Origin: Nemertoderma westbladi
Taxonomy: Eukaryota; Animalia; Xenacoelomorpha
Length of the DNA: 64,000 nucleotides
Direction of reading: 5' to 3'
Assembly (NCBI GenBank): GCA_032718475.1
Contig: JAUCBJ010005507.1
Coordinates: 5,024-69,023 of the forward strand
This document shows, one piece after another, positions 2,610 through 63,999 of the stretch. Numbering within the stretch: the stretch's first letter is position 1; each line of letters opens with the position of its first letter. The translations under genes and the position numbers were made by a program. A model generated the notes under the pieces. That model was not told where the DNA came from. It was given only the letters and a program-made list of their open reading frames with translations, and ran no database searches.

Positions 2610-2854
2610 ATTGCACGAAACCCAATGGGAAATGTTCACCAAGTCACACAAATAATATTAAAATGACCCAAACCAAGTCACACAAATAATATTAAAATGA
2701 CCCAACTAACAATCAAGTTGTTTTAATTTTATTAACTTAGTGACATAACTAGTTCTTATCAGTTATTGAACCTTGCCCAGAACATTAGGGAGTAATTATT
2801 CTATCTTAAAACAAAGGAATTAATTAACAGAGTGTACAGTAAGAGATTACTCAC

Positions 2855-3260: not shown

Positions 3261-3320
3261 CTGCCACAAGGAAAAAATAATTAGTTATTAATGTAGTTTG
3301 GTTTATTAATAACATAACGG

Positions 3321-22430: not shown

Positions 22431-22896
22431 TTTTTTTTTGGCCATTGTAAAATAATATTGTGGTAATTAGATGCAGTGTGCAGTGTAGTCTTGTTCGTAA
22501 ATAGATTGTGGTAATTAGATGCAGTGTAGTCTTGTGGTAAATAGATTGTGGTAATTAGACGCAGTATAGTGTTGTGGTAATTAGACGCAGTATAGTGTTG
22601 TGGTAATTAGACGCAGTATAGTCCTGTGGTAAATAGACACTTGAGTTCTGTATATTGTGGTAATTAGATGCAGTATAGTGTTGTGGTAATTAGACGCAGT
22701 ATAGTCTGATAGTGTTGTGGTAATTAGACGCAGTATAGTCGTGTGGTAAATAGACACTTGAGTTCTGTATATTGTGGTAATTAGACGCAGTATAGTGTTG
22801 TGGTAATTAGACACTTGCATTCTGTATATTGTGGTAATTAGATGCCATTGCAAAATAATATTGTGGTAATTAGATGCAGTATAGTCTGATAGTCTT

Positions 22897-24075
22897 TGTT
22901 CGCGCTTTCAGACCTTTGGCAGATTAACCCGCCAAATTAAGATGTCTTCTAGATATTAAATCGCTTTTTAGCCTATGGCAAGTATTTGATTCACTACACT
23001 AGTCGAAACCAATCTGTGCGCGATCATTCACCCGCTGGATATTCCCGGGAGATTGGGTTCGACGGCTTAATTTTATTGCTATGTAAGCCTAATGTATTAT
23101 TCGACTGACAGTATTATATAATCTCTGACAATATTATTCACCTTCGGGAATATTAACAGTTCCTTTAGGACGTGGCGCTTTATCTATATAAACAGAGTTA
23201 TGACTTAAACTACTCACAACGATATGGCTTAATTATAATTCACATATATGGCGCATTCTTTAGGAATTGCTTCTTTAACAGACTCACTCATACACAATGC
23301 TGCACAATACTGCACACTAATCTGCCAATCTTCACTGATTTTAGTCACATATAAAAGGAACACAGACTGACTCATGTAGGGTCTATCAAATAACATTAGA
23401 TTCACTTCAAACCACTTTAACATAAGTCACAATCGTTATAGGTAACCTTTCTCTCTTACCTTCGGTATATCAAGAATATTGGGTTTTCGGGGTTATTTCT
23501 CGTTATTCCAATATAATAATTCATCAACCAATATAATGAATAACCGACAACAAATAGCAGTATACAGTATTGATTGAGCAGGTAATTTTTAGCAGTGAGA
23601 TATTCAAAGAGTGTACAGTTGCAGTTAACGGATATATGTCCTTATAATTAAACCTACTAGTGTTGGACTAAAAAGCAGAAAGCACAAAACACTACAAAGC
23701 CGTTCTTTCGTGGCTTTGAAAAACTCGTGACTACTCTCTATACGAGAATACCAACTACCCTTATTCCACGAAGCTCCCGTTCAACACAGAGAAAGAGCAG
23801 TGAGATAGGAAAATTTCAGTTCAGTAGCTCTGTGATAGGTCAAAATCAAGGCTAACTCAAATTCTATTGGGAGATACAAAAACAAGGCTATGACGCAACC
23901 TTCCTAGGCTGGTTGGCCGATTAAACAGAGCCCAGATACCTGCGTACAGCAAATCAGCCAATAAGCTGGTAGCTTGCACTATTTTAGCTATAGATCCCCT
24001 TTAGAGTATTCTAGCGACCGGGGGGGAACTGGCCAACAAGGCAAACGAATCAGTTATCCCACAAAAGCTTTTACA
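22897..24075 (-). mobile_element. Solo LTR (possibly BEL/Pao type) inserted in right foldback arm
   Basis: TG...CA ends; 5-bp TSD GTCTT (22892-22896, 24076-24080); interrupts an otherwise continuous array. Superfamily and strand are tentative. Confidence 0.75.
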
Positions 24076-25967
24076 GTCTTGTGGTAAATAGATTGTGGTA
24101 ATTAGATGCAGTATAGTGTTGTGGTAATTAGACACTTGCATTCTGTATATTGTGGTAATTAGATGCCATTGTAAAATAATATTGTGGTAATTAGATGCAG
24201 TATAGTGTTGTGGTAATTAGACGCAGTATAGCTGTATAGTGTTGTGGTAATTAGACGCAGTATAGTCGTGTGGTAAATAGACACTTGAGTTCTGTATATT
24301 GTGGTAATTAGATGCAGTATAGTGTTGTGGTAATTAGACGCAGTATAGTCTGATAGTGTTGTGGTAATTAGACGCAGTATAGTCGTGTGGTAAATAGACA
24401 CTTGAGTTCTGTATATTGTGGTAATTAGATGCAGTGTAGTGTTGTGGTAAATAGACACTTGCGTTCTGTATATTGTGGTAATTAGACGCCAATGTAAAAT
24501 AATATTGTGGTAATTAGATGCAGTGTAGTCTTGTGGTAAATAGACACTTGCGTTCTATATATTGTGGTAATTAGATGCCATTGTAAAATAATATTGTGGT
24601 AATTAGATGCCTCTATCGAATTGTTGGGGTAGATTGCGGTAGATTGTGGTAGGTTGGGGTAGATTGTGGTAGGTTGGGGTAGGTTGGGGTAATTAGTAGG
24701 ACCGCTGCTGGCTGCTCCTTTCCCTTAATGTTTTTAATTTAATTAATTTTTAAAACCTTCTGAACACCTAGTTTGTGTTTGCGGTCAATTTGCGCCATTG
24801 ACTATAAAACGTAAGGTAGGCTACCCACCCACATACTGACATACTTTAAGTCTGTAAGTTAAATCATACTCGATATACGGGTAGGCCTACATTTTTGGAC
24901 GGGTGCGTTTTAAACGGATACGTTTTAACCTGCAACCTTTCCAAGCCAGCAAGCAGTCAAGTATCTACACAGTGCTGATGTGCCATCTGTCAGTCTGTGC
25001 CACTGCTGCACTGTCTAACTGTGACTGTCTTTGTCTTGCAGTCTTGTAGGGGCATCATACCGCGCTATCGGTACAAACTTGGAACCTTCATGCTAACAGG
25101 CTAATACACTGATACAAGCTGAGAAGCAGCCCTTTTGAAAATTTGGCCTATTTCAGTATTTAGAAATTATAATTTGCCCGCCCGCCGCACGGCAGCACGG
25201 TGCAAAAATCATGCGCCGGCTCGTTGAAAAGCTACCGGTGGTACCATACAGCCATAGTCCATACTGTCATACCGTAGGGTAGGCATACCGGTACTTCAGT
25301 AGGCCTACTTGATACCGGTACCGGTACGGTAGGCCTACTGGCTGACAGATAGACCTACACCCTACACGACATATTCCTGTATTCGCCGCCTTGTGTCTTG
25401 GCTCAGTCAGTTAGTTGCTCTCGCGTCTCGCCTCGCACTTCACACTTCGACTTCAGCACTTGACTCAGTGACTGCCTTCAGCACTTCAAATCAACAAATC
25501 AAACTCACCATATCGGCCTATCCAGCTATTAGGTGTACTGCTGTACTGATGCCGGTCTGCCCTGTTCTTCTGTCTGGCTGTAGCAGGTTAAACAATAAAA
25601 AAAACCGGAAGAATAAAGCACAAACAGACAAAGACGGGGGCTGACTTCTGGACTTACTGCTGTACCGGTACTGAATGAGGACAGACTATGATATGGCAGC
25701 AAGGAAGTACGGTACCGATACCGGTAACTTAACTTCGTTGGCCTAACTCAGTAACTGTCAAGGATATGAGCGTGTGACTTGTGAGGGGTGAAGCAACAGC
25801 AGAACAGAGCCTGGTCTGTAAAGAGAGCTGATGATTTGGGACTTATGTTTTGTTTTCAGAATAAGTAAATTCATTTTATTTAAGTCATACAGCTAAGCTA
25901 TATTTATCAGCAACTTTTTGTGAAAAACATATACTTATTATTTGTGGCCAGCATCTTTATCAGCAAC

Positions 25968-32347: not shown

Positions 32348-32592
32348 ATCTGCAGAAAAAGAAGTTCTGTGGGGAAATATTGGCGAGTACCAAAATATCT
32401 CACAGGCACAGTAAGTACAGTAGAAGTAGTCAACTGTGGATTAATTAAACTTTAAATTAAATAAAAATTAAACAGCCAAGAGAGAGGATCCTTCGGGTTG
32501 TCTCCAGTGTTTCGTGTTTCCCAATGTCATCAATCACTTTACTTAATTAAACTGAAGGTCTGGTTAGTATTTATTTTAAAGTGTTGACTTAC

Positions 32593-34566
32593 CTGAGCTG
32601 TTCTAACAAGGTTTTCCACTTGTGAAACAATTTCTTCAACAGGTGAAACAACGTCATCAGATGGTGAAACAATGACCTCAGATGGTGAAACAATGTCTTC
32701 AACTGGTGAAGCAACGTCATCAGCTGTTGAAACAATCTCCCGAACTGATGAAACAACGTCCTCTACTGGTGAGACAACGTTATCAGCTGGTGAGACAACG
32801 TTATCAGCTGGTGAGACAACGTTATCAGCTGGTGAGACAACGGTATCAGCTGGTGAAACAATGTCTTCTACTGGTGAGACAACGTTATCAGCTGGTGAGA
32901 CAACGTTATCAGCTGGTGAGACAACGTTATTAGCTGGTGAGACAACGCTATCAGCTGGAGAGACAAAGTAATCAGCTGGTGAAGGAACATCCTCTGCTGG
33001 TGAGACAATTTCTTCAGCTGGTGAGACAATTTCTTCAGCTGGTGAGACAATGTCTTCAACTGGTGAAGCGACATCATCAGCTGATGAAACAATCTCCCGA
33101 ACTGATGAAACAACGTCCTCTACTGGTGAGACAACGTTATCAGCTGGTGAGTCAACGTTATCAGCTGGTGAGACAACGTTATCAGCTGGTGAAGCAACAT
33201 CCTCAGCTGGTGAGACAATTTCTTCAGCTGGTGAGACAATTTCTTCAGCTGGTGAGATAATGTCTTCAACTGGTGAAGCGACATCATCAGCTGATGAAAC
33301 AATCTCCCGAACTGATGAAACAACGTCCTCTACTGGTGAGACAACGTTATCTACTGGTGAGACAACGTTATCTACTGGTGAGACAACGTTCTTAGCTGAT
33401 GAAACAATTTCTTCAATTGGTGAAACAATCTCCCGAACTGATGAAACACCGTCCTCTACAGGTGAAACAACGTCCTCTACTGGTGAGACAACGTTATCTA
33501 CTGGTGAGACAACGTTCTTAGCTGATGAAACAATTTCTTCAATTGGTGAAACAATCTCCCGAACTGATGAAACAACGTCCTCTACTGGTGAGACAACGTT
33601 ATCAGCTGGTGAAACAACGTTATCAGCTGGTGAAGCAACATCCTCAGCTGGTGAGACAATTTCTTCAGCTGGTGAGACAATTTCTTCAGCTGGTGAGATA
33701 ATGTCTTCAACTGGTGAAGCGACATCATCAGCTGATGAAACAATCGCCCGAACTGATGAAACAACGTCCTCTACTGGTGAGACAACGTTATCAGCTGGTG
33801 AGACAACGTCATCAGCTGGTGAAGCAACATCCTCAGCTGGTGAAACAATCGCCCGAACTGATGAAACAACGTCCTCTACTGGTGAGACAACGTTATCAGC
33901 TGGTGAGACAACGTTATCAGCTGGTGAAACAATGTCTTCAACTGGTGAAGAAACATCATCAGCTGGTGACACAATTTCCCGAACTGATGAAACAACGTCC
34001 TCTACTGGTGAGACCACGTTATCAGCTGGTGAAACAATGTCTTCAACTGGTGAAGAAACATCATCAGCTGGTGACACAATTTCCCGAACTGATGAAACAA
34101 CGTCCTCTACTGGTGAGACAGCGTTATTAGCTGATGAAAAAATGTCTTCAATTGGTAAAACAATCTCCCGAACTGATGAAACACCGTCCTCTACAGGTGA
34201 AACAACGTCCTCTACTGGTGAGACAACGTTATCAGCTGGTGAAACAATGTCCTCAGATGGTGAAACAACGTCATCGGCTGATGAAACAATGTCCTCAGGT
34301 GGTGAGACAATGTCTTCAACTGGTGAATCAATGTCTTCTACTTGTGGACCAATGTCCTCAGTTGGTGAAACAATGTCCTTTACTGGTGGAACAATGTCCC
34401 CAGTTGTCGAAACAGAGTCCTCGGTTGGTGTAACGATATCAACCATACACCAGTCAGAGACTGACTGTTCCAAATGCAACAAATCTTTTCTCTTAATAAT
34501 ATCGTTTTCCTCGATATCACCATTCTGCTGATCCATATTAATGAAGGCGTTGTCTACATTAGCCAT
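32593..34566 (-). CDS. Probable first coding exon (658 aa) of large minus-strand gene; acidic 7-aa repeats (e.g. VSPADNV / VSPAEEI)
   Basis: aaaATGG start, non-repetitive N-terminus, 21-bp in-frame repeat with no frameshifts, perfect donor CAG|GTAAGT at 32592 (phase 0, fits exon 16065). Confidence 0.75.
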
Positions 34567-35185
34567 TTTGTTAAGCGATAATATTTATAAGAATTAACTG
34601 TATAAACTATATGCTACAGCAAAATCTTTAAGTCGTCGTACCGGTATACTTTATAAATTATTCATCTGAGGAATACCGACGCAAATCCCTGCAAATTCCG
34701 AGAAAAATGAGCCCCTTTCATTGTTATTGCATTATTATTCGCAATACATCCTGCAAACAAGATATTTTATTATAAAATGAATATATTATTCATTATTTCT
34801 ATCCGCTCTTTAAGTGTAGAAGTTTCAGTCGTCCGGGTTCAATATTGCTCTTTATATTACGGCGTTAGAAAAAGTGCCCCATATAAATGCATTTGAATTG
34901 AATTACTTCTCCCCGGAAAAAATGACAAACACTGTACGTGTATACCAACACTAAGCAGTAAGCAGTACAATCCTTTTAAAAGAAAGGATTCAGCCGCCAA
35001 AAAAAATAATTCAACCGCCGTCTCTATCACACTACCGGTATAGGCGCCACTTTTTATATGGAAAGTATTCATTCAGCGTTATTTTACTTGTCTGTCTTGG
35101 GTAACTTAATGACTTGTTTTTTGGGATGTTTTGTAGGTACTGACTGGGATATTGGTTTGTATTTTAGGTTCGGGTTTGTTGGAAA

Positions 35186-39277: not shown

Positions 39278-40324
39278 TTAAGTGAATTAAATAATATTTA
39301 CTTATTTTTGCTAGAAATTTGTGCTGTTTGTATATTAGCGAAACGCTTCCAGTTGTATTTTGTGTTATATTAAAAATAAATATAACATATTACTTTTAAA
39401 ACACAAATTTCCTGATAATACCTGCCTTTCATCAATCCTCTGTGCGCCTTTGGTTTGGGGTGGTGCAGATTAACATGGGGGGGGGGGGGGGGGGGCCTTT
39501 TCCCTCTCTTTGATTTACTGGTGTTTGGTTAAATTTCTTAGATACCGAGTTTGTGATACAGTAGAATCACTCAATATTAATCTGTATCTCATAACTGAGT
39601 CTATACGTATATATATGCCATATATACAATGTAAAACAACCTCCCACATTCAGACATGTTATTCGGCTTGTTTATCTGGTAGTTGTTATATAAGAGAAGG
39701 TATTTATTGCTTCACGTGCCTTTGATTAAATACATTCTGCAAGTGTAACCAATAGTCTACTGCGTGGACTCCTGACCTCGTATACTGTATATTACTGTAG
39801 GTCATGGCAGACTATATGTACTTGTAAACCGATAACACCGTGAATGGCATACTTCTAGTATTTTAATTCGACAATATTTTTTGATCGAAAAAGTTGGTGC
39901 TAAGGATGTTTGATTGCATATAAATGCTACAAAGACCGAATTCTTATTAATGTTGATGGGAACTTGACAACCATTGATAATAATCAAAGCACGATAGCCT
40001 ATAGCAAGATAGTAACGCACAAAACGTACTGACACTGAACACGGCCAATATTTAATTGTCGTGGGTATACGACTATACGTTTAGGTAATTGCCAAGAGAG
40101 TGCCCATGCGAAGTTTCCCAGGATTCCCTTTCCCAGCGAAGAAAAAAAACATCGGAAAGGAATTTGGCCCATTCACTATCATTAGGGAACTTTCGTATTT
40201 TCGACCATCTTCCCAAACAGTCTGGGAAAGTTCACATGGGTGGTATTTCGATATTCACGTGCTGCGCGAAGGCCTTTTTTTGAGGGGGATCTTCTGTTGA
40301 TCAGTCCTTCGGAGGGTGAGTGAG

Positions 40325-43300
40325 AAGGTGGGTGTGTGGGAATGTGGGAATGTGGGAAGGTGTGTGGATGGGAATGTGGGAAGGTGTGTGGATGGGGATG
40401 TGGCAAGATGGAATGTGGCTGGGAATGTTGAAAGATGAATGTCAATGTGGGAAGATGGGTGGGAATGTGGGAGGATGGAAATGTGGGAGGGAATGTAGGA
40501 ATGTGGCAAGATAGGAATATGGGAAGGTGGATGGGAATGTTGGAAGATGAATGGCAATGTGGGAAGGTGGGTGGGAATGTGGGAAGATGGGAATGTGGGA
40601 AGGTGGATGGGATTGTGGGAAGGTGGAATGCAATGTGGGAAGATTGGAATGTGGCAAGATGGGAATGTGGGAAGGTGGATGGGAATGTTGGAAGATAGGA
40701 ATGTGGGAAGGTGGATGGGAGTGTTGGAAGATGAATGGCAATGTGGGAAGGTGGGTGGGAATGTGGGAATGTGGGAAGGTGAATGGGAATGTGGGAAGGT
40801 GGAATGCAATGTGGGAAGATTGGAATGTGGCAAGATGGGAATGTGGGAAGGTGGATGGGAATGTTGGAAGATAGGAATGTGGGAAGGTGGATGGGAGTGT
40901 TGGAAGATGAATGGCAATGTGGGAAGGTGGGTGGGAATGTGGGAAGATGGGAATGTGGGAAGGTGAATGGGAATGTGGGAAGGTGGAATGTAATGTGGGA
41001 AGATTGGAATGTGGCAAGATGGGAATGTGGATGGGAATGTGGGAAAATGAGAATGTGGGAAGGTGGATGGGAATGTTGGAAGATGGGAATGTTGGAAGAT
41101 GGGAATGTAGGAAGATGGGAATGTAGGAAGATGGGAATGTGGATGAGAAAGTAGGAAGATGTGAATGTGGATGGGAATGTGGGGAGGTGGATGGGAATAT
41201 TGGAAGATGGGAATCTTGGAAGATGGGAATGTTGGAAGATGGGAATGTTGGAAGATGGGAATGTTGGAAAATGGGAATGTTGGAAGATGGGAATGTTGGA
41301 AGATGGCAATGTAGGGAGATGGGAATGTGGGAAGATGGGAATGTGGATGGGAATGTAGGATGATGGGAATGTGGGAATGTGGGAAGGTGGATGGGAATGT
41401 TGGTGGATGGGAATGTGGGTAGATTGGAATGTGGGAAGGTGGGGATGTGGGTCGGAATCTGGGTGGATGGGAATGTGGATGGGAATGTGGGTGGATGGGA
41501 ATTTGGGAAGGTGGGAATGTGAGAAGGTGGATGGGAATGTTGGAAGATGGGAATGTTGGAAGATGGGAATGTAGGAAGATGGGAATGTAGGAAGATGGGA
41601 ATGTGGATGGGAAAGTAGGAAGATGTGAATGTGGATGGGAATGTGGGGAGGTGGATGGGAATATTGGAAGATGGGAATCTTGGAAGATGGGAATGTTGGA
41701 AGATGGGAATGTTGGAAGATGGGAATGTTGGAAGATGGGAATGTTGGAAGATGGGAATGTTGGAAGATGGCAATGTAGGGAGATGGGAATGTGGGAAGAT
41801 GGGAATGTGGATGGGAATGTAGGATGATGGGAATGTGGGAATGTGGGAAGGTGGATGGGAATGTTGGTGGATGGGAGTGAGGGGAGGTGGATGGGAATGT
41901 TGAAAGATGGGAATGTTGGAAGATGGGAATGTAGGAAGATGGGAATGTAGGAAGATGGGAATGTAGACGGGAATGTGGGAGGATGGGAATGTGGGGAGGT
42001 GGATGGGAATGTTGGAAGATGGGAATGTTGGAAGATGGGAATGTAGGAAGATGGGAATGTAGGAAGATGGGAATGTGGATGGGAATGTGGGTGGATGGGA
42101 ATGTGGGTGGATGGGAATGTGGGAAGGTGGTTGGGAATGTGGGAAGAGGTGGGTGGGAATGTGGGTGGATGGTAATGTGGGTGGATGGGAATATGAGAAG
42201 GTGGATGGGAATATTGGAAGATGGGAATGTTGGAAGATGGGAATGTTGGAAAATGGGAATGCAGGAAGATGGGAATGTAGGAATGTGGATGGGAAAGTAG
42301 GAAGATGGGAATGTGGATAGGAATGGGGAAAGGTGGGTGGGAATGTGGGTGGGAATGTGGGTGGATGGGAATATGGGAAGGTGGATGGGAATGTTGGAAG
42401 ATGGGAATGTGGGTGGATGGGAATGTGGGTGGATGGGAATATGGGAAGGTGGATGGGAATGTTGGAAGATGGGAATGTTGGAAGATGGGAATGTAGGAAG
42501 ATGGGAATGTAGGAAGATGGGAATGTGGATGGGAAAGTAGGAAGATGGGAATGTGGGTGGATGGGAATGTGGGAAGGTGGATGGGAATGTGGGAAGGTGG
42601 GTGGGAATGTGGTTGGATGGGAATGTGGGTGGATGGGAATGTGGGAAGGTGGATGAGAATGTTGGAAGATGGGAATGTTGGAAGATGGAAATGTGGGTGG
42701 ATGAGAATGTGGGAAGGTGGATGGGAATGTTGGAAGATTGTAATGTAGGAAGATGGGAATGTGGATGGGAAAGTAGGAAGATGGGAATGTGGATGGGAAT
42801 GTGGGAAGGTGGGTGGGAATGTGGGTGGATGGGAATGTGGATGGGAATGTGGGAAGGTGGGTGGGAATGTGGGTGGATGGGAATGTGGGTGGATGGGAAT
42901 GTGGGAAGGTGGATGAGAATGTTGGAAGATGGGAATGTTGGAAGATGGAAATCTGGATGGGAATGTGGGTGGATGAGAATGTGGGAAGGTGGATGGGAAT
43001 GTTGGAAGATGGGAATGTTGGAAGATGGGAATGTTGGAAGATGGGAATGTTGGAAGATGGGAATGTTGGAAGATGGGAATGTTGGAAGATGGGAATCTAG
43101 GAAGATGGGAATGTGGATGGGAATATATGATGATGGGAATGTGGGAAGGTGGGTGGGAATATGGGTGGATGGGAATATGGGAAGGTGGATGGGAATGTTG
43201 GAAGATGGGAATGTCAGAAGATGGGAATGTAGGAAGATGGGAATGTAGGAAGATGGGAATGTAGGAAGATGGCAATGTGGATGGGAAAGTAGGAAGATGG

Positions 43301-46300
43301 GAATGTGGATGGGAATGTGGGTGGGTGGGAATGTGGGTGGATGGGAATGTGGGTGGATGGGAATATGGGAAGGTGGATGGGAATGTTGGAAGATGGGAAT
43401 GTTGGAAGATGGGAATGTAGGAAGATGGGAATGTAGGAAGATGATAATGTGGATTGGAATGTAGGAAGATGGTAATGTGGGAAGGTGGTTGGGAATGTGG
43501 GTGAATGGGAATGTGGGGAGGTGGATGGGAATGTTGGAAGATGGGAATGTTGGAAGATGGGAATGTTGAAAGATGGGAATGTAGGAAGATGGGAATGTGG
43601 GAAGGTGGATGGGAATGTGGGTGGATGGGAATGTGGGTGGATGGGAATGTGGGAAGGTGGGGATGTGAGTGGATGGGAATGTGGATGGGAATGTGGGTGG
43701 ATGGGAATGTTGGAAGGTGGGAATGTGGGAAGGTGGATGAGAATGTTGGAAGATGGGAATGTTGGAAGATGGGAATGTCTGAAGATGGGAATGTAGGAAC
43801 ATGGGAATGTGGATGGGAAAGTAGGAAGATGGGAATGTGGATGGGAATGTGGGAAGGTGGATGGGAATATTGGAAGATGGGAATGTTGGAAGATGGGAAT
43901 GTTGGAAGATGGGAATGTTGGAAGATGGGAATGTTGGAAGAAGGGAATGTTGGAAGATGGGAATGTTGGAAGATGGGAATGTTGGAAGATGGGAATGTAG
44001 GGAGATGGGAATGTGGGAAGATGGGAATGTATGGGAATGTAGGATGATGGGAATGTGGGAATGTGGGAAGGTGGTTGGGAATGTGGGTGAATGGGAATGT
44101 GGGGAGGTGGATGGGAATGTTGGAAGATGGGAATGTTGGAAGATGGGAATGTTGAAAGATGGGAATGTAGGAAGATGGGAATGTAGGAAGATGGGAAAGC
44201 GGATGGGAAAGTGGGAAGATGGGAATGTGGATGGGAATGTGGATGGGAATGTGGGTGGATGGGAATGTGGGAAGGTGGATGGGAATGTGGGAAGAGGTGG
44301 GTGGGAATGTGGGTGGATGGGAATGTGGGTGGATGGGAATATGGGAAGGTGGATGGGAATATTGGAAGATGGTAATGTTGGAAGATGGGAATGTAGGAAG
44401 ATGGGAATGTAGGAAGATGGGAATGTGGATGGAAAGTAGGAAGATGGGAATGTGGATGGGAATGTGGGTGGATGGGAATGTGGGAAGGTGGATGGAAATG
44501 TGGGAAGATGGGTGGTAATGTGGGTGGATAGGAAAGTGGGTGGATGGGAATGTGGGAAGGTGGATGAGAATGTTGGAAGATGGGAATGTTGGAAGATGGA
44601 AATGTGGATGGGAATGTGGGTGGATGAGAATGTGGGAAGGTGGATGGGAATGTTGGAAGATGGGAATGTTGGAAGATGGGAATGTTGGAAGATGGGAATG
44701 TTGGAAGATGGGAATGTTGGAAGATGGGAATGTTGGAAGATGGGAATCTAGGAAGATGGGAATGTGGATGGGAATATATGATGATGGGAATGTGGGAAGG
44801 TGGGTGGGAATATGGGTGGATGGGAATATAGGAAGGTGGATGGGAATGTTGGAAGATGGGAATGTCAGAAGATGGGAATGTAGGAAGATGGGAATGTAGG
44901 AAGATGGGAATGTAGGAAGATGGGAATGTAGGAAGATGGCAATGTGGATGGGAAAGTAGGAAGATGGGAATGTGGATGGGAATGTGGGTGGGTGGGAATG
45001 TGGGTGGATGGGAATGTGGGTGGATGGGAATATGGGAAGGTGGATGGGAATGTTGGAAGATGGGAATGTTGGAAGATGGGAATGTAGGAAGATGGGAATG
45101 TAGGAAGATGATAATGTGGATTGGAATGTAGGAAGATGGTAATGTGGGAAGGTGGTTGGGAATGTGGGTGAATGGGAATGTGGGGAGGTGGATGGGAATG
45201 TTGGAAGATGGGAATGTTGAAAGATGGGAATGTAGGAAGATGGGAATGTGGGAAGGTGGATGGGAATGTGGGTGGATGGGAATGTGGGTGGATGGGAATG
45301 TGGGAAGGTGGGGATGTGAGTGGATGGGAATGTGGATGGGAATGTGGGTGGATGGGAATGTTGGAATGTGGGAAGGTGGATGAGAATGTTGGAAGATGGG
45401 AATGTTGGAAGATGGGAATGTAGGAAGATGGGAATGTAGGAACATGGGAATGTGGATGGGAAAGTAGGAAGATGGGAATGTGGATGGGAATGTGGGAAGG
45501 TGGATGGGAATATTGGAAGATGGGAATGTTGGAAGATGGGAATGTTGGAAGATGGGAATGTTGGAAGATGGGAATGTTGGAAGAAGGGAATGTTGGAAGA
45601 TGGGAATGTTGGAAGATGGGAATGTTGGAAGATGGGAATGTAGGGAGATGGGAATGTGGGAAGATGGGAATGTATGGGAATGTAGGATGATGGGAATGTG
45701 GGAAGGTGGGAATGTGGGAAGGTGGTTGGGAATGTGGGTGAATGGGAATGTGGGGAGGTGGATGGGAATGTTGGAAGATGGGAATGTTGGAAGATGGGAA
45801 TGTTGAAAGATGGGAATGTAGGAAGATGGGAATGTAGGAAGATGGGAAAGCGGATGGGAAAGTGGGAAGATGGGAATGTGGATGGGAATGTGGGTGGATG
45901 GGAATGTGGGAAGGTGGATGGGAATGTGGGAAGAGGTGGGTGGGAATGTGGGTGGATGGGAATGTGGGTGGATGGGAATATGGGAAGGTGGATGGGAATA
46001 TTGGAAGATGGTAATGTTGGAAGATGGGAATGTAGGAAGATGGGAATGTAGGAAGATGGGAATGTGGATGGAAAGTAGGAAGATGGGAATGTGGATGGGA
46101 ATGTGGGTGGATGGGAATGTGGGAAGGTGGATGGAAATGTGGGAAGGTGGGTGGTAATGTGGGTGGATAGGAAAGTGGGTGGATGGGAATGTGGGAAGGT
46201 GGATGAGAATGTTGGAAGATGGGAATGTTGGAAGATGGGAATGTTGGAAGATGGAAATGTGGATGGGAATGTGGGTGGATGGGAATGTGGTAAGGTGGAT

Positions 46301-47225
46301 GGGAATGTTGGAAGATGGGAATTTAGGAAGATGGGAATGTAGGAAGATGGGAATGTGGGTGGATGGGAATGTGGGTGGATGGGAATATGGGAAGGTGGAT
46401 GGGAATGTTGGAAGATGGGAATGTTAGAAGATGGGAATGTAGGAAGATGGGAATGTAGGAAGATGGGAATGTGGATGGGAAAGTAGGAAGATGGGAATGT
46501 GGATGGGAATGTGGGAAGGTGGGTGGGAATGTGGGAAGGTGGGTGGAAATGTGGGTGGATGGGAATGTTGGAAGATGGGAAAGTAGGAAGATGGGAATGT
46601 GGATGGGAAAGTAGGAAGATGTGAATGTGGGTGGATGGGAATGTGGGAAGGTGGATGGAAATGTGGGTGGATGGGAATGTGGGAAGGTGGATGGGAATGT
46701 GGGTCGATGGGAATGTTGGAAGATGGGAATGTTGGAAGATGGGAATGTTGGAAGATGGGAATGTAGGAAGATGGGAAAGTAGGAAGATGGGAATCTGAAT
46801 GGGAAAGTAGGAAGATGGGAATGTGGGTGGATGGGAATGTGGGAAGGTGGATGGGAATGTGGGAAGGTGGATGGAAATGTGGGTGGATGGGAATGTGGGA
46901 AGGTGGGTGGGAATGTGGGTGGATGGGAATGTTGGAAGATGGGAATGTTGGAAGATGGGAATGTTGGAAGATGGGAATGTAGGAAGATGGGAAAGTAGGA
47001 AGATGGGAATGTGAATGGGAAAGTAGGAAGATGGGAATGTGCGTGGATGGGAATGTGGGAAGGTGGATGGAAATGTGGTGGATGGGAATGTAGGATGATG
47101 GGAATGTGGGAAGACGGATGGGAATATGGGAAGGTGGATGGGAATGTTGGAAGATGGGAATGTAGGAAGATGGGAATGTAGGAAGATGGGAATGTGGATG
47201 GGAATGTTGGTGTATGGAAATGTTG
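40325..47225 (+). repeat. ~6.9-kb purine-rich satellite (GGGAATGT[T/A]GGAAGAT / GGGAATGTGGGTGGAT) with internal segmental duplications
   Basis: Almost no C on plus strand; rare variants recur at 464-bp (41139/41603) and ~1651-bp spacing (e.g. ggatgtgagt 43661/45312). Confidence 0.95.
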
Positions 47226-49261: not shown

Positions 49262-49780
49262 TTAGTTTTCAATATCAAAAATACTATTTAAAATTTCATG
49301 TAATTCTGAGTCATTAACGCTTCGTGTGCGAAAGCGTTGCATAGCAACAGCCAGATGCAAAGCTAGCAGATGCTTGCACATCAACCAATCAGGTTTACGG
49401 ATAACAGAGAACTCGAAAGATGGGCATCGACAGTAGAGAAGCGCTGGTAGACAATGGTAGACATTGCCTGAAGTCCCCAATACCTCGAACAACCGACAGG
49501 TGTCGCTCTGCAGTTCAGTGACGCTGTCTTTTTCTACAAGGTCTAACGCTTGTACCAAAGGTCCCCTGAAAACCACCTGTAGAGCGCTGAGTAGGCTATC
49601 AGGAACCATAAGTATATTAACGCCCCCAGCGTGCGTGTCCCGCATTGGTGATCCAGTAGTACTCACACCAGTTGAATCTGACTCTTCTGCTACAGACTGG
49701 TTACAGACCTTGGACAACTCGGCTAATAAATAATTAGCTATTTGCGGAAGTCGCCTCCTCTCTTGGAATTCTATCGCCAT
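49262..49780 (-). CDS. ZSWIM7: SWIM zinc-finger protein ZSWIM7/SWS1 (Shu complex, homologous recombination), intronless CDS
   Basis: 172 aa; LSALQVVF..LVQALDLV, FEVLGTSG..YHC, YCRCPSFEFSV...MCKHLLA (CxC-xn-CxH SWIM). Confidence 0.9.
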   Translation of the reverse strand: MAIEFQERRRLPQIANYLLAELSKVCNQSVAEESDSTGVSTTGSPMRDTHAGGVNILMVPDSLLSALQVVFRGPLVQALDLVEKDSVTELQSDTCRLFEVLGTSGNVYHCLPALLYCRCPSFEFSVIRKPDWLMCKHLLALHLAVAMQRFRTRSVNDSELHEILNSIFDIEN

Positions 49781-50917
49781 TATATTATTTTAGTTCGAAT
49801 AATTTATAAGATAGAGGATCTGCCTAACCGCATCCGGACAGCCATATGAAGTACATCATAGTAAAGAAATGAATAATTATTAAATAATATTTATTTATAT
49901 TAAAAATACTAGCAGCACAATAATTATTATAATTAAAAGATATCCGAATGAATGTAGGAATTATGTAAAGTAGAAAGAACTTCGTTTCTAGGTCAGTAGG
50001 TGATTAACGAAATAGTCTGACAACGTTAGCTGATAATAATTGATTGCTTAAGTAATTGTATCATCACAAGTTATACAATACGTGTGTGGTGTGATCAAAT
50101 TAAAATTAAAATTATAAAATTACGTATTACATGGGAAAAAAACGTAGAACATTTTTTTTCCAATATTCTCTCGACCCTTTATTAACCTCGCTGACGTTCG
50201 GTAAATAAAATGCCTCGAGAATAATGAAAAAAAGATTTTCCCCATGTAATAAATAATTATTAATGCTAAATTTATTAATAATTACCAACGTAATTACTAA
50301 TCTAGAATAAATAATGCGAATTCAAGAGAATAATCTTCTAGTTCGATGATTGCATATATATTTTATTACCGCATTTTTGGAAGACTAATTGGATAATTAT
50401 TGTCATCAAATGCGGACATTGAAGTCTTTATTGTCCGCACTTTTGCGGACAAAAAATAAAACTTCAATCTGAATATAATATAATACTATATATAACCTGT
50501 TCTATTGCTTTTAATTTATTCATTGTTTTGTTGGGATAGCGACAAGACCCCCCCCCCCCCCCCCTCCCGTCTCCAATTCGGGGCATTTTAATACAACAAA
50601 AACAGTTCGAGAATAATTATCTATATAATAATAATTAAAAATACAAACAAAATTACTAAATAAATAATATTATGTTTCACTATATCTACAACACACTAAT
50701 GGATAACTAACACTTCATATTGCTTGAATTTATTAGTTTAACGATCTATAATATTATCTATATATGATAACTAGGATAATTACCCCCCTGAACAAAATTA
50801 CTTTTATATTTACTATTTAATATCTGTTATTTAGGCAATTGTCAGGGAGGCAATTATCCTGTCATGTCAAAATCTATAAGGAGCCTAATTGCACGATTAT
50901 TATAAACGTTTAACTAT

Positions 50918-52306
50918 CTAACGACTCATATATGCGTGGAAAAACATTCCCACAAACAGCATAAACTCGTGTATAAAACTCAGGTAGAAGGCGAGGTACA
51001 TAAGGACATGTCGGAGTAGGCTGATCTCCCAACCTATATCCAACACAAAGGGCCCATCGCTAACGTCTCGAAACCCTGAAGTAACAGCAACGTTATTAAA
51101 CGCGTAGATCCGAACTACCTCGGAAGAAGATTCCGATACGCTATAAAGGATAGCGATGTGTAGAGAGAGGGCTACGGAATACAGGATCTGGGAGGATATC
51201 ATCCCTAGACTAAGGTAAACGTTGCGAATCATATCAGTTATCGCGGTGCTGCTTACTCTACCGGTTTCGCGCTGAAGAGCTTCAAGTTTTCGAGGAGCCG
51301 TGTCGAGATGACATTGGAGACAAGTTGGTAAGAGAAAGAGTTTAACTAGAGAGGATAACATTTGTACGCTAATGTGGACTGTCTGGTAGTTATTGCATGG
51401 GATTACTGGGGTGTCTGGATGACAGAGGATGTGTTCCCTGAAGGATTGAACCCACATGCCAACATAGACGGAGTCAAGAACCGTGGCCATGTAGAAGGAG
51501 AACTTATATATGTTGGGACAGGTTGGGTTGCGAAGACTGTCGATAAAGAGTTTGGCGAAGCGGAAAGCGGGGAAAGTTAACAAGCTGCCGATAGCTGTGG
51601 ATATTACAGTTAGAGTTAAACCGAAACACACGTACGAGTTAGTGGTACCGGTAGTGTTAGATTGCGTTATATTGTTAGAAGAATTAGTTAGATTTACGTA
51701 CAACTGTCGGAGGTTTAGATTGAGGTATCGGTCTGGAAGAGCCACTATTGCCATTGAGAACAAAACATTGAAACACATTGCCATGAGAAATGTGGAACGC
51801 TCGCCTACCAAAGAATCCGAGGTAAAATACAGTTTGGAGAAAGAAGATAAATTCTTTAAGATGATAAATAAGGCGACCAGACTCCAAATGGCGCTGAGGT
51901 TGATACCTTGCCGAGCAGGAGGGGAGTAAAGACAATAAATCTCGGTGATAAAGAAAACAGCTGTTGAAAATAAACTGAAATCCAGGATAAATTGGAACTC
52001 ACTGTAGTGAGGGAGAACAAGAACTTCTAAAATTTTTAGTCGGTGGCTTTTCAGTTGGATTTCCCCAGCCAACGATTTGGATACATTAACGACACCATCG
52101 CCTCGCGAATCACGAGATTTATCGGCGGGTTTACGTTTCGGTCGTTTGGTACCGGTAGCGAGTAGCTGTCTGTATGTGTCGTCGGTCGGCGGTAGGTAGC
52201 GGTGGAGCCCGGATCGAAGTATAAGATGGCCGATAATTGGCGAGAGTTTGGTGAGGAACGTGACGCAAACCAAAGATACAACCAGTTGTGTCCCAAGTAG
52301 AGCCAT
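50918..52306 (-). CDS. TMEM161: Transmembrane protein 161 family, intronless CDS
   Basis: N-terminus MALLGTQLVVSL, LHRYLPPTD, HYSEFQFILDFS, GERS, LLTFPAFRFAK match TMEM161A/B; ATG at 52306. Confidence 0.9.
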   Translation of the reverse strand: MALLGTQLVVSLVCVTFLTKLSPIIGHLILRSGLHRYLPPTDDTYRQLLATGTKRPKRKPADKSRDSRGDGVVNVSKSLAGEIQLKSHRLKILEVLVLPHYSEFQFILDFSLFSTAVFFITEIYCLYSPPARQGINLSAIWSLVALFIILKNLSSFSKLYFTSDSLVGERSTFLMAMCFNVLFSMAIVALPDRYLNLNLRQLYVNLTNSSNNITQSNTTGTTNSYVCFGLTLTVISTAIGSLLTFPAFRFAKLFIDSLRNPTCPNIYKFSFYMATVLDSVYVGMWVQSFREHILCHPDTPVIPCNNYQTVHISVQMLSSLVKLFLLPTCLQCHLDTAPRKLEALQRETGRVSSTAITDMIRNVYLSLGMISSQILYSVALSLHIAILYSVSESSSEVVRIYAFNNVAVTSGFRDVSDGPFVLDIGWEISLLRHVLMYLAFYLSFIHEFMLFVGMFFHAYMSR

Positions 52307-52894
52307 TTCAGCTTCGTACAAACGTCTGTATCTGTTTGGCGATCGGTATTGCGGTAAAATAGGCCACCAGAACACAGAAGCTGACCATTACTGCATTACC
52401 ATACAGCAGCAGGCCTACAGAGCTGCAGTAGTGCAGTACACCTACAAATATAAGATAAACATGTGGGAAGTGGTACAATGACAATGAGATGTCAAAATAC
52501 AGATAGAGGAGGAGGACTTTCGACGCACCCAAAATTCATCCCTCTCCAGGAGATAATCGACGCGAATTACTACTGTGGCAGTATTCTGTTTTACTATCAA
52601 AATTCGGTTGCGGTGGTATTCCTATTAAATATAGACTGTAAATAACAATGTGTTAACTATGAATACAACTGTTACTCCCAACTAAATGCACCCAAATGTT
52701 CCTCTGTCCCTAATATGACTTAAAATGACCGCTAATCCTTATCCTCTTCCCAATTTCCCATAATAACTATTAAGATTTTTTACGTAAATACCAAATACAT
52801 ACTGCAATACTGTATTGCTTCAATTTACTTTCGAAAAGTAAATATCATTTATCTAAGAGAATCGTAAAAAATTCGAGTCTGTTTCTTACTTACT

Positions 52895-57600: not shown

Positions 57601-57642
57601 ATGTCGTCTTTCTTTAACAAAATTAGTAGAAGGAAAGATCAG
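57601..57642 (+). CDS. EEA1: EEA1-like gene coding exon 1 (MSSFFNKISRRKDQ)
   Basis: aaaATG, donor CAG|GTAGGT, phase 0 fits next exon. Confidence 0.65.
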
Positions 57643-57853
57643 GTAGGTAAATAATTTATAAGATACTAATTGCAAATATGTATTTATTATTTATTAGGTC
57701 CTATATTAGTATTTATTAGGTCCTATATTAGTATTTATTAGGTTCTATATTAGTATTTATTATTTATTAGGTGTTTATATTAAGATAACAATTCAATAAT
57801 TACATATGTTTTTATTTCTAACTTAATTACTATAAATATTAAATATTTTTTAG

Positions 57854-58039
57854 GATATAGAAGGTTTTATATGTCCTGATTGCCGTATCGCTTGTTCCTC
57901 AGCTGAGGACTTACAGACCCACTACCTATCCCATGGCGATGTCGCCAACTCGGCAGACAGCCAATGGCCTACAAGACCTCCAGGAGCTGAGGTCAGTGCC
58001 CTAAAGGCCAAGATTAATGACCTTGAAACCAATCTCTTT
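57854..58039 (+). CDS. EEA1: EEA1-like exon 2 with C2H2 zinc finger (EGFICPDCRIACSSAEDLQTHYLSHGD)
   Basis: EGFICP.C...L..HY...H is the Rab5-binding N-terminal finger of EEA1/Rabenosyn-5; following coiled coil (EVSALKAKINDLETNL) favours EEA1; tttttag| and |GTAAGT. Confidence 0.8.
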
Positions 58040-58329
58040 GTAAGTTTGTTTGGGTTATTTACGTTTGAGCTACCGAAGTTGGCGGAGTCTGACACTGTTA
58101 GGGGGGTGGGTCAATATTCGCCAATAGGGCCTGCTATTTGTTGTTGTTGTCAACTGCGTTACCATTTTGACCGGTTAATAAATTTGTCGAATTTACCGAA
58201 TAATCCAATATTACACAGAGATGTTCCTCTCACTATGCATTCGTTATATTATATTTATTGCCATGTGTATCGCATTATTGGGTTCCCTAGGTTACATTTA
58301 CGAGGTTTCTATGGTTTCCCCTTTATTAG

Positions 58330-58503
58330 GAGAAGTCGTCCGCTCTGCACAACTGCAGCGAGGAGATCAAGGTATTTAAATCGAACAAGGAGATGGTTTC
58401 CTCTGAGGTCGTTCTACTCCGTAAACAACTGGTTGAGTCCATAGAGTCCGGACGGCAGTATAAAGACAACTTAGATAAAGTGCAGATGAAGACAGCTAAT
58501 ATG
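58330..58503 (+). CDS. EEA1: EEA1-like exon 3, coiled coil (EKSSALHNC...EVVLLRKQLVES...KTANM)
   Basis: cctttattag| acceptor, ATG|GTAAAT donor, 174 nt phase 0/0. Confidence 0.75.
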
Positions 58504-58538
58504 GTAAATAAAATACAATACTATTTATATCCTCAAGG

Positions 58539-60368
58539 CAGGGACGGACAGGAAACGATACGATACCGAATCGGATTTCCGTATTTCGTATCGCAGTATT
58601 TTCTTCGTATCGAATTTCGTATCGTATTCGTACCGTATCGGTATAATACGAAGTGCTGTGCGAACAATTATTTTTCGTATCGTATTTTCGTATCATTCAT
58701 TTTTTTTATTTTTTATGTTTTTTACAGTAAAACGCCACATCACTTAGTTTTAGTTGTTAACAATTTTTTTTTACCAAATTGCTATATAAGATACCGGTAG
58801 GTTACAGTCAAGTATATTTGTGTGGAGAACTCTAATGGCGCCTGTAAGACATTGATACTACTACTACTAGGTCGAGCGAACTCGGACAAAATTGGTACAT
58901 AATTGGTTTAAGATTTTAATGTAAGGAAATTGGCATGGTGATTGTAAGGACTATTATTAGGTCCCTCATAACTTTGTGCCCATAGTAGCCTCCGTAGCAA
59001 GCAGTGGAGTGATGAAATGTTCAATCGACTCGTCACGTCATATATATTTTATAATTTATTACTGGTGTTATGGGTGAATGAGTGGTTTCATATTATTAAA
59101 TATTTTGTTGGGCACAGCTTTGCAATGTCAGCAGTGACGTACAGGTGGGATCGAACTGGTGACCTCCAAGTTGTAACCATTCAGATATCGGCTCAGGTAA
59201 AAGGTATATCTCGACCCCGATATCACATTCTAATGCTATGCATGGATCACTCCCACAGCTGCTATGCATGGATCACTTCCACAGCTGCTATGCATGGATC
59301 ACTCCCACAGCTGCTATGCATGGATCACTCCCACAGCTGCTATGCATGGATCACTCCCACAGCTGCTATGCATGGATCACTCCCACAGCTGCTATGCATG
59401 GATCACTCCCACAGCTGCTATGCATGGATCACTCCCACAGCTGCTATGCATGGATCACTCCCACAGCTGCTATGCATGGATCACTCCCACAGCTGCTATG
59501 CATGGATCACTTCCACAGCTGCCATGCATGGATCACTTTCACAGCTGCTATGCATGGATCACTTCCACAGCTGCACAGTTGACTTACAATGGGTTATTCG
59601 ATTGATAAAAGGGCGACCTCCAATGTCACTGTTTATATGAAGTTTTGATTGACTGGTTATGTCTGTCAATATTGAGTTTTGGGGCTGATATGGAAACAGT
59701 CGATGATATATCGAGTATATTGCGATACCCCGAACTATCTAGAAGATTTGACATTGATGTGCATAGTGGAACAGGAGGGGGCGAAGCAATCAGAGCGATC
59801 AATTTGTTTGTGTGGTCAGAGATTGTAGGATTTAAGAAGCATAGTAGTTAGAGAAAATGAAACCCTTTTAAACACAGAAGTTATAACGGATATTTGGGAT
59901 CTTAAGATTAATAAACGAAGTATTCCTGAACTATAAGTGCCACATCGGTTTCAAGGTTCCTTATGGATAATGGAGTTGAGTTAGGTGTGCTGAATGCGTA
60001 CTGGAAGGATATTCCGTGAAATAGATTTCCTGTTCCATGCAATAGAGGGTAATGATGTTGATGTAATGATGGACCTGGTCGAAGAAGGTTATAAAGCAGG
60101 GAGGAGTTGAAAGTAGTTTGTATTTGCGTTACTATAGTATAATACAATATTATAGAATTTATTTTATTATTATGTTATGTTGTTGTAAGACACAAATTAA
60201 GTACATTTTTATATCAAGTCTGAAATAAAGTACGATACGAAATCTTGTCGCATCTTGGATTTTTCGTATCATATCATATTTTCTCGAAATTCCATTCGTA
60301 TCATATCGTGAAAAATTGGTTCGTATAGTAGCGTATGTACGTATCGTATCGTATCCTGTCCCGGCCAC
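58539..60368 (-). mobile_element. Degenerate hAT-like element inserted ~35 nt into EEA1 intron 3
   Basis: Inverted ends cagggacggacaggaaacgatacgatac / gtatcgtatcctgtcccggccac with cgtat subterminal repeats; flanks share (c)aagg; remnant YP.L...FHG...AFS resembling hAT C-terminal domain at ~59910-60060. Confidence 0.55.
59235..59575. repeat. 26-bp minisatellite (~13 copies) gctatgcatggatcactcccacagct
   Basis: Direct inspection. Confidence 0.95.
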
Positions 60369-61246
60369 AAGGTGATATCCTACACATAGAGGTCAATAAA
60401 GTGATCTTTTTATCCTCTAGGTGGTGTCCTACACAGTGAAAGGTAAATAAAATACTATTTCTATTCTCTCGGTGGTGTCCCACACAGAGAGGTAAATAAA
60501 ATACTCTTTTTATTGTATAGGTGGTGTCCAACACAGAGAGACGTCAATAAAATACATTTGTTATCCTCTAGGTGGTTTCAACACATATATGAGTAAATAA
60601 AATACTCTTTTTATCCTCTAGGTGGTGTCCTACACAGAGAGGTGAATGAAATTCTCTTTATATCCTCTAGGTGGTGTTCTACACATAGATGGGTAAATAA
60701 AATACTCTTTATATCCTCTAGGTGGTGTCCTACACAGAGAGGTGAATGAAATTCTCTTTATATCCTCTAGGTGGTGTTCTACACATAGATGGGTAAATAA
60801 AATACTCTTTATATCCTCTAGGTGGTGTTCTACACATAGATGGGTAAATAAAATACTCTTTATATCCTCTAGGTGGTGTTCTACACATAGATGGGTAAAT
60901 AAAATACTCTTTTTATCCACTAGGTGGTGTTCTACACATAGATGGGTAAATAAAATACTCTTTATATCCTCTAGGTGGTGTTCTACACAGTGAGGTGAAG
61001 ATGAAATATAATTTTTATCCACTAGGTGGTATCCTACACAGAGAGGTGAATGAAATGCTCTTTTTATCCTCTAGGTGGTGTCCTACACAGAGAGGTGAAT
61101 GAAATGCTCTTTTTATCCACTAGGTGGTGTTCTACACATAGATTGGTAAATAAAATGCTCTTTTTATCCACTAGGTGGTGTTCTACACATAGATTGGTAA
61201 ATAACTTTTATCCACTAGGTGGTGTTCTACACATAGTGAGGTAAAA
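60369..61246 (+). repeat. 51-bp minisatellite (~17 copies) whose unit begins with the EEA1 intron-3 donor sequence gtaaataaaatac...tatcctctagg
   Basis: Period 51 (acacataga 60781, 60832); matches 58504-58538 gtaaataaaatacaatactatttatatcctcaagg. Confidence 0.9.
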
Positions 61247-61370
61247 TACTCATCTATTTTCCCCGATCTAGCTTATTCACCTCGCTCGTTGCGTTCGCTC
61301 GTTAGATAAAAGATTGCGAGTCAAACGGAAAATAATTGTATTTATTACCCAATAATTTGTTTAATTTTAG

Positions 61371-61521
61371 TCAACTGAAATGGCGGCCCTAAAATCGGAC
61401 CACGACGAACTCAAGTCGAAATATGTAACGGCCAACACTGAAATCCGCAACTTGGAACAATTGGTTAAAGATGGAAAGTCATTTAGAGATCAACTGGAGA
61501 ACCATATGGCCTGTCAACCGA
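61371..61521 (+). CDS. EEA1: EEA1-like exon 4, coiled coil (STEMAALKSDHDELKSKY...ENHMACQP); gene continues beyond window
   Basis: aattttag| acceptor, CGA|GTGAGT donor, phase 0 in, open heptad-type frame. Confidence 0.75.
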
Positions 61522-61779
61522 GTGAGTTAAGGGTTTCGCTACACAAATAATGGCAGTGGAAATTATCTAATAATAATGTGGTCCTTTAAGGAGCAACATA
61601 AAATTATATTCACATTTAAATAGCGAATTAAATTATATTCAACAACAATCTGCACATCTACAATTATACCTGTGGTCAACTATAACAGAAACACTAAATA
61701 AAAAGGCCAACATATCAACCATATTATATGAACATGTGTCACGGCGGGAAACTAAAAAATATATAAAAAAACTTTCATG

Positions 61780-62583: not shown

Positions 62584-63999
62584 TTAATTGTGGTTAACTG
62601 TTCTATCATTGTCAGATCCGGGTCGTTCAGCTGTTGAATGAGTTCGGTCGGCAGCTGGAGGACAAAATGGCAGATAATGGCAGAATGGCAACCTGTTAAA
62701 CAAGTCAGTCAGACCGAAAGGTAAGTCGTAGACAGTGGCACCACAGTCTGTATCATCGGGGTTCAGTTGGGTATTCCAACCCAAGAAGCCACGTTCTTCC
62801 TTAGTACCGGGGATGGTGTTGTCTAATATGAAGGCAATAACTCCGCCAACAAACATTCCCGTCTTGAGTAGAACCACGATTATCTGATCGAAGTCAGGTG
62901 CTCCCGTCTCAATGATGCTGGCGTTCTCGGGTTTATTTATCCAGTAAGGGATCGCTAGACCCATAACCACGGAGAACCCAAAGACAATAAGGTTCCTTGC
63001 GGAATTCATATCGACGAACTGGAGGTTGGAGACCCCGATAGCGGCGATCATGGCAAACATCGTGCAGAAGACGCCGCCGACGACCGGGTCAGGTATCGTC
63101 ACGAACAACGCGCCGACCTTCCCCAACATGCCGAACACGATCATGATGGCGGCCCCGGCCTGCACGCATCGTCGCGAGCCGACCTGCGTGATCCCGATGG
63201 CGCCGATGTTCTCGCTGTACGAGGTGCTCCCGTTCCCCGACCCGATCGCCCCCGCCAGGATGCACATGAGTCCCTCGATCCCGACGGCGCGGTTTACCGC
63301 GTGGCGCGGCGGCGGGGGCGCGCCGGAGAGTCGCGCGCACGCGTAGTAATCCCCAATGGATTCTATCATCGACGCTAAAACCCCGGAGATCATGCCTAGG
63401 ACACTGGCCATGGAGACAGTCGGCAACCCCCATTGCCCTGGATACGGGAACATTATCCATTTAGCGTTGCTGAGAACATCCGAACGCGTATCTGTGCGGG
63501 CCAGGTCTGCCTCAGAGAACACCTCTAACGAAGTGAGTATGTAGCAGAAGGCCCAGGATGTTAAAACAGCCAGGATCACTGGGAAAAGTTGGAAGGCCTT
63601 GAGGTAAACGAGATGACATCCTTTCGCGCGGGTGTATCCAGGAAAAGGGATTCTGAAGCTACGGAGGTACTGGGAGAACAAAAGAATCAGCGCGATGGTG
63701 AGAAAGGAGATGCCCCAGTGCGTCCCGGCAAAGTCGGCCGCGGCACCGAATAAACTGAGGCCGACCAAGGTTATAGTCGGAGCGATAACTAAAGGGCCAA
63801 TAAACCGTAACATAAATCCAAGAATCCCCGAGAATCCTACGACAACCTGAACCAGCGACGCGACCATTATCGCTCCTTGTATCTCCCGCATCCGAGTTCG
63901 CCAGTCGGGGCCGCCAGTATCGCAAGCGAACTCTGGGAGAGCCAGGATAGCGAACGTCGGAGCCAGGAACGCGAATGTAGCCCCTTGGACTATAGGTAG
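62584..63999 (-). CDS. SLC23A: SLC23 / nucleobase-ascorbate transporter (NAT/NCS2), 5' end beyond window, no introns in visible part
   Basis: LPIVQGATFAFL, PYPGQWGLP, ESIGDYYACARL, NAT motif SYSENIGAIGITQVGSRR, LDNTIPGT.EERG; frame open from 63999. Confidence 0.95.
   Translation of the reverse strand, partial: LPIVQGATFAFLAPTFAILALPEFACDTGGPDWRTRMREIQGAIMVASLVQVVVGFSGILGFMLRFIGPLVIAPTITLVGLSLFGAAADFAGTHWGISFLTIALILLFSQYLRSFRIPFPGYTRAKGCHLVYLKAFQLFPVILAVLTSWAFCYILTSLEVFSEADLARTDTRSDVLSNAKWIMFPYPGQWGLPTVSMASVLGMISGVLASMIESIGDYYACARLSGAPPPPRHAVNRAVGIEGLMCILAGAIGSGNGSTSYSENIGAIGITQVGSRRCVQAGAAIMIVFGMLGKVGALFVTIPDPVVGGVFCTMFAMIAAIGVSNLQFVDMNSARNLIVFGFSVVMGLAIPYWINKPENASIIETGAPDFDQIIVVLLKTGMFVGGVIAFILDNTIPGTKEERGFLGWNTQLNPDDTDCGATVYDLPFGLTDLFNRLPFCHYLPFCPPAADRTHSTAERPGSDNDRTVNHN

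Follow-up and report, generated by a model that had tools for sequence, protein, structure and literature searches.

Background

In the human genes F7, CBS, 6-16, LMNB2, and PDGF, minisatellites have been described in which the first unit is situated on a splice donor, and the upstream donor is mostly the one used (PMC1557585). The 37-bp VNTR in IVS7 of F7, whose alleles vary, has a unit made up of four exon bases and 33 intron bases (PMC1557585). In amphioxus, the mirages of Adh3, TnC, the globins BflGb6 and BflGb9, and PGBD5 carry AG/GT signals, are spliced normally, and vary in length, and a route to intron gain has already been proposed for them (PMC3087553, PMC3902484). In the Rogers model, an intron arises from a duplicated exon segment containing AGGT, which supplies both the GT and the AG ends (PMC4974935).

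In the present study, we analysed a repeat array in the third intron of an EEA1-like gene of Nemertoderma westbladi; the whole stretch of DNA that was analysed, 64,000 nt in length, is referred to as the window. The original prediction was that the AG|GT junctions of this array might serve as recursive-splicing (ratchet) sites or cryptic micro-exons, and that the array might be a snapshot of intron birth by duplication. We found that the array is best classed with donor-anchored minisatellites such as those of human F7 IVS7 and the amphioxus mirages.

Results

Contigs from five sequencing runs were compared with the window. The runs X1, X2, and X3 are DNA. No run is recorded as RNA; X4 and X5, which carry the label 'DNA?', were treated as RNA-derived because their contigs are spliced at GT..AG. 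The features of the gene and of its third intron are as follows.

57601..57642, plus strand: coding exon 1 of the EEA1-like gene (from the ATG); its joint, 57640-57852, is GT..AG and occurs in X4 and X5
57854..58039, plus strand: exon 2, encoding a C2H2 zinc finger similar to that of EEA1; spliced joints in X4
58330..58503, plus strand: exon 3, ending at the authentic donor ATG|GTAAAT; spliced contigs
58504..58538, plus strand: first (stranded) copy of the unit, whose start is the authentic donor; the left target-site copy occupies 58531-58538
58539..60364, no strand: putative hAT-like non-autonomous insert (1,826 nt), with imperfect terminal inverted repeats and multi-copy ends
59234..59574, no strand: 26-nt minisatellite, 13 copies, within the insert; the candidate deletion allele has its left breakpoint here
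60365..60372, no strand: right target-site copy, CCACAAGG
60373..61251, plus strand: main array, consisting of what is left of the first unit (unit 0), then 17 complete units (44-51 nt each) and an incomplete final one
61252..61370, plus strand: unique 3' end of the intron, including the authentic acceptor; not significantly similar to the unit; covered by single long contigs in X1, X2, and X3
61371..61521, plus strand: exon 4; the exon 3 end precedes it in RNA-like contigs

One open frame runs across exons 1-4, with GT..AG introns of 211, 290, and 2,867 nt. The last of these, intron 3 (58504-61370), is bridged by spliced contigs. The top single-stretch PDB match of the exon 2 finger is the EEA1 finger 3mjh_B (E 7.8e-4), and exon 4 gave weak Pfam matches of the coiled-coil type. 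EEA1 has a C-terminal FYVE domain. The gene runs past the window edge, and only its N-terminal part is readable in the 64 kb; no full-length EEA1 relative of the product scored in the search. Judging from the N-terminal C2H2 finger and the coiled coil, the gene is a candidate EEA1, and the predicted identity is upheld in the form EEA1-like.

One X5 contig departs from exon 2 at about 57991, at GAG|GTCAGT, an in-frame alternative donor 48 nt 5' of the main one (depth 10 over 57989-58328). An X4 contig of 2,471 nt begins at 61495 and extends past exon 4. An SLC23-type permease ORF (62584-63999, minus strand), open for 471 codons and apparently lying within intron 4 of the EEA1-like gene in antisense orientation, has best matches of 57-62%, in animals.

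The repeat unit of intron 3 is 49-51 nt long, and the tandem array at 60380-61245 has a period of 51 and 17.3 copies. Eighteen donor-like copies span 60392-61241, and the 18 acceptor-like junctions lie between 60370 and 61217. The junction is AG|GT in 17 of the 18 and CG|GT in the other, which bears out the description of AG|GT in nearly every copy. The unit had been described as 29 nt from donor to AG followed by 22 nt starting with GT. The 29-nt part stood, with this length in 15 of the 17 complete copies and 31 and 22 nt in the others (copy 2 being measured from the donor at 60443). The 22-nt part stood only as the commonest form, because 20- and 21-nt forms also occur: the GT-starting part is 22 nt in 10/18, 20 nt in 7/18, and 21 nt in 1/18. 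An intron of 29 nt is probably too short to splice here, as the gene's other introns measure 211 and 290 nt; PMC5435141 supplied no usable figure for a minimum intron length.

The similarity of the intron start (58504-58538) to the unit, on which the placing of a first unit at the true donor depended, proved significant on alignment. At 58511-58538, 25 of 28 positions are identical to the unit (blastn E 3e-5 in the window), and none of 17,980 background 35-mers scored as high against the unit as did the first 35 nt of the intron. When the insert was deleted in silico, the first unit became continuous and matched the majority unit at 40 of 49 positions. The unit is therefore older than the 1.8-kb hAT-like insertion that splits it, as had been proposed. 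Units at the edges of the array are more diverged (39-43 matches of about 50) than those in the core (44-48).

The insert is flanked by CCTCAAGG and CCACAAGG, which form an 8-bp target duplication (7/8 identical), and its inverted arms of 21 nt are 95% complementary. Its ends are multi-copy: the end bins in X1 have depths of 1,256-3,821 vs. 26, and other flanks are found in X4. A Pfam search with the insert's three longest frames, and with the frame that runs into it, hit no transposase family; the matches obtained were low-complexity ones to the 26-nt repeat. hAT elements duplicate 8 bp of target sequence and typically have short inverted ends and lengths below 4 kb (PMC3517528). The insert is like the non-autonomous members described there in these three respects, in its many end copies, and in giving no transposase match; it is unlike them in that its ends are imperfect and in that it contains very-high-copy pieces and a 26-nt minisatellite. 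From its end structure only, we regard it as a non-autonomous hAT-like element; no autonomous hAT partner was identified. An allele lacking the insert, which had been named as a check, did not turn up in X1 or X2, where contigs cross both insert ends; X3 contigs are absent on 60365-60658, a gap that was not counted as evidence, and the empty-site search covers X1 and X2.

The very-high-copy pieces nested in the insert (58733-59280; bin depth 24,000-57,000 vs. 26 in X1) are, by guess, SINE-like. Neither a tRNA nor, at E 0.1, an Rfam family was found in intron 3.

The acceptor-like half of the unit has 12-15 pyrimidines in 20 nt vs. 11-16 in the gene's real acceptors, and looks as good as these. 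A filter requiring a pyrimidine tract and YAG|GT was passed by 15 of the array junctions. Donors were scored by simply counting matches to the 9-position consensus of PMC1557585, a crude measure that is not trained on this species. By this count, the donor regenerated after the AG, ATG|GTGGTG, matches 5 of 9 positions in 16/18 copies and 6 of 9 in 2/18, while the four RNA-supported donors of the gene match 8, 6, 7, and 7. The copy donors of the array match 5-8 positions (median 6), some of them, with 7-8, equalling the real donor. The ratchet-like strength expected of the GT after the AG was thus not observed (5-6 vs. 6-8 in real donors and 5-8 in copy donors).

We then shuffled the unit 20,000 times while keeping the donor hexamer. 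AGGT appeared in 18% of the shuffled units, and a pyrimidine tract with YAG|GT in 1.8%. The latter signature would be expected by chance somewhere among four donor-anchored arrays with a probability of 7%, and among 18 arrays with a probability of 28%; among the four donor-anchored arrays in the window (see below), only the intron 3 array carries it. AG|GT in nearly all copies is one event multiplied, and the donor is present in every unit because of where the repeat begins. The acceptor-like half is the sole coincidence in the unit.

In the transcripts seen, the array is excised whole. A contig from X5 (contig 23, depth 10.2) runs from 58328-58502 directly into 61370-61546 with no letters between, and the two X4 contigs listed at the exon 4 start (depth 800 and 4.4) both end in the last 17 nt of exon 3. 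Exons 3 and 4 thus adjoin in both X4 and X5, so splicing uses the first donor together with the normal acceptor. Micro-exon use in mature RNA, as suggested originally, found no counterpart in these direct joins: no micro-exon or array-derived junction occurred among the X4 and X5 contigs listed, although a 0.55% variant was retained in X4, as shown by the listing of both depths, 4.4 and 800. In such contigs, rare variants are dropped, and decay would conceal forms that contain stops. The contig depth on the array itself is zero (60377-61335 in both runs; 60365-61330 in X4) and was not counted as evidence. Hypothetical inclusion of any of the 18 micro-exons leads to a stop within 13 codons, and the frame is shifted in 17/18.

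One X1 contig joins the 26-nt repeat of the insert (59253-59282 or 59487-59516) to 61221. Between the ends of this joint, X1 contigs have depths of 13.3 and 11, vs. 26 and 23.8 outside. The X1 data fit a candidate allele, present in the heterozygous state, from which 1,704 or 1,938 nt and with them all 18 junctions are missing; its basis is one short contig and contig depths, which are not copy numbers. The deleted span in the window would be 59283/59517-61220, from the 26-nt repeat of the insert to the last array unit. Further differences in the array are an 8-nt insertion in X1 and variant units at high depth in X3, and no contig spans the array. Among the contigs listed, the array region has 16 records in X1, 19 in X2, and 7 in X3. 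Only one of these records (X1) has a loose end, so the unit looks local rather than a dispersed family, and no unit copy with foreign flanks was found among the listed records of the three runs.

In the 64 kb, 4 of the 18 arrays tested start at donors, vs. 0.2-0.8 expected for 15-60 assumed donors. The other three belong to one gene neighbouring the EEA1-like gene.

1-1947, minus strand: 71-nt units, 27 copies, starting at the inferred donor 1883, with a 64-nt exon match
3319-6651, minus strand: 48-nt units, 69 copies, starting at the inferred donor 6609, with a 42-nt exon match
13912-15769, minus strand: 43-nt units, 43 copies, starting at the inferred donor 15764, with a 4-11 nt exon match

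The exon ends and donors of these arrays were deduced from reading frames. Four minus-strand exons form a single open frame of 261 codons when joined at GT..AG ends, and one frame stays open through the exon preceding the 43-nt array. The 48-nt array takes up almost all of its intron. The acceptor signature (tract and YAG|GT) is found in none of the three. The excess of such arrays may point to a mutational bias affecting donors in this animal, which is a likelier lead than a recursive ladder. Donor-anchored repeats recur in the window, and the intron 3 array is the member that happens to hold AG|GT.

Several further features were observed in the window. A TMEM161 ORF (50918-52387, minus strand) is uninterrupted and very divergent, its best relative among 1.84 billion representatives being 32% identical; its best matches are at 27-32%, and the named ones are arthropods. 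The ORF next to it (49262-49789, minus strand) has a weak SWIM-finger match. A MULE transposase fragment (21723-22466) lies within 17444-24691, between long subterminal repeat arrays in opposite orientation. A 681-codon frame (32539-34584, minus strand) consists of 21-nt acidic repeats and ends near a donor-like site, and a 16-nt satellite occupies 6.9 kb (40320-47197).

As to the origin of the intron 3 array, the exon-side match of the 18 copies is 0-2 nt, and an anchored alignment to the exon 3 end gave p values of 0.36-0.40. A short or eroded exon part in the unit is possible because the F7 unit has only four exon bases. The intron start matches the exon 4 start at 8 of 20 positions, and the intron end matches the exon 3 end at 3 of 20. 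The unit is not similar to exon 4 (p 0.93) or to the 119-nt intron tail (p 0.74). It has a weak local match (score 19) in the middle of exon 3, about 85 nt from the donor, with p 0.034 against shuffles and 0.066 against 91 real coding windows. An exon origin of the GT-starting half of the unit was also considered and was not significant by alignment.

Discussion

The EEA1-like array shares with the F7 IVS7 VNTR a first unit at the authentic donor, the reiteration of that donor downstream, a mostly intronic unit, and the use of the upstream donor (PMC1557585), the last of which is seen here in the X4 and X5 contigs. It is unlike F7 in that only 1-2 exon bases match, in that each unit has an acceptor-like AG|GT, and in that the transposon has placed 1.9 kb between its copies and the real donor. 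In CBS IVS13 and 6-16, nearby pseudo-sites are used (PMC1557585), whereas none is seen in use here in the listed contigs. Like the amphioxus mirages (PMC3087553, PMC3902484), the array consists of tandem splice-boundary copies with AG/GT signals, normal splicing, a homogenised core, and diverged edges. It differs from them in having no clear exon piece, which the three neighbouring arrays do have (up to 11, 42, and 64 nt).

We consider that the array is very probably a passive, donor-anchored intronic minisatellite, born at the locus, which repeats the donor about 18 times and whose first copy was later split by a hAT-like element. In this process, tandem duplication would have taken in roughly the first 50 nt of an existing intron and no more than 1-2 recognisable bases of the exon, and slippage or unequal exchange would then have enlarged the array. 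By chance, the duplicated segment would have included an acceptor-like stretch 29 nt past the donor. The core units may then have been homogenised while the edge units drifted, and the hAT-like element presumably cut off the first copy afterwards. By analogy with human F7, the most upstream donor would win and the copies would be silent, and rare use of an internal site would result in a frameshift or stop and probably in decay. The AG|GT junctions are likely silent passengers, because the array is removed whole in the transcripts seen. Against the passive reading stand the genuine tract with YAG|GT, a signature that just 1.8% of shuffled units produce, and the array's lack of a visible exon 3 end, unlike in classic mirages.

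The alternative that the junctions are working ratchet sites, in which exon 3 would be joined to an array AG 1.9-2.7 kb away and the GT re-used to give the normal mRNA, has in its favour the presence of a pyrimidine tract and juxtaposed 3' and 5' motifs (AG|GT in 17/18, with 15 junctions passing the filter). Together with the short out-of-frame stretch and the donor-like site 20-22 nt after each junction, this resembles ratchet points with cryptic RS-exons (PMC6110457, PMC8605326, PMC10156609). The ligation product of recursive splicing is identical to the ordinary one (PMC6110457), and the process also occurs in smaller introns (PMC10156609). However, the regenerated donor is weaker than the real donors and than the donor of the would-be RS-exon, 5-6 vs. 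5-8 for the latter (median 6) being the opposite of the usual ratchet-point pattern (PMC8605326). The intron is only 2.9 kb long, whereas the fly sites are conserved and concentrated in very long introns (PMC6110457). The 18 clustered, repeat-born copies are also unlike known ratchet points, and the candidate deletion allele has no array site at all, which speaks against the sites being needed. Recursive splicing at the array sites is thus unlikely; we give it little credence, and no more to the idea that the insert enabled ratchet use by distancing the AGs from the donor. Low-level inclusion of 20-22-nt poison micro-exons that tune EEA1 through nonsense-mediated decay is highly improbable: acceptor-like and donor-like sites bracket each unit, some copy donors match the real donor (7-8/9), and every inclusion yields a stop, but both X4 contigs at the exon 4 start and the X5 contig are direct joins, the units vary between 20 and 22 nt, the array varies between runs, and there is no sign of constraint.

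The claim of intron birth by duplication was not supported by the comparisons with the exons. The array begins exactly at the donor, each unit contains AGGT, and the mid-exon 3 match is weakly in favour of the birth of intron 3 from a tandemly duplicated AGGT segment, as in the Rogers model. On the other side, that match lies far from the donor, the acceptor is not supplied by the array, the intron ends are unlike the opposite exons, and the unit is unlike exon 4 or the acceptor tail. The signature expected from the Rogers model, an intron made of duplicated flanking exon at both ends, is absent at intron 3, and such a birth is extremely unlikely.

As it stands, the passive minisatellite is one more donor-repeating array that the spliceosome ignores. 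It adds two small extras: the order of events is dated, array first and transposon second, and there is a candidate natural deletion allele. It is improbable, in our judgement, that a donor minisatellite with a latent acceptor, shifted by a transposon, gave rise in one step to a ladder of 18 AG|GT recursive sites. In the literature searched, which included few subscription papers, we found no precedent for a repeat-born recursive site, and the accessible part of PMC13196383 only reviews recursive splicing. Should the AG|GT ladder prove to be in use, it would demonstrate how a repeat can give rise to recursive sites in a single step, something not seen in the known fly and human cases. The ladder would then be polymorphic within the species and could be compared with its natural deletion allele. 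The presence of four donor-anchored arrays in 64 kb suggests that this genome could be suitable for counting such arrays and for asking why donors seed them.
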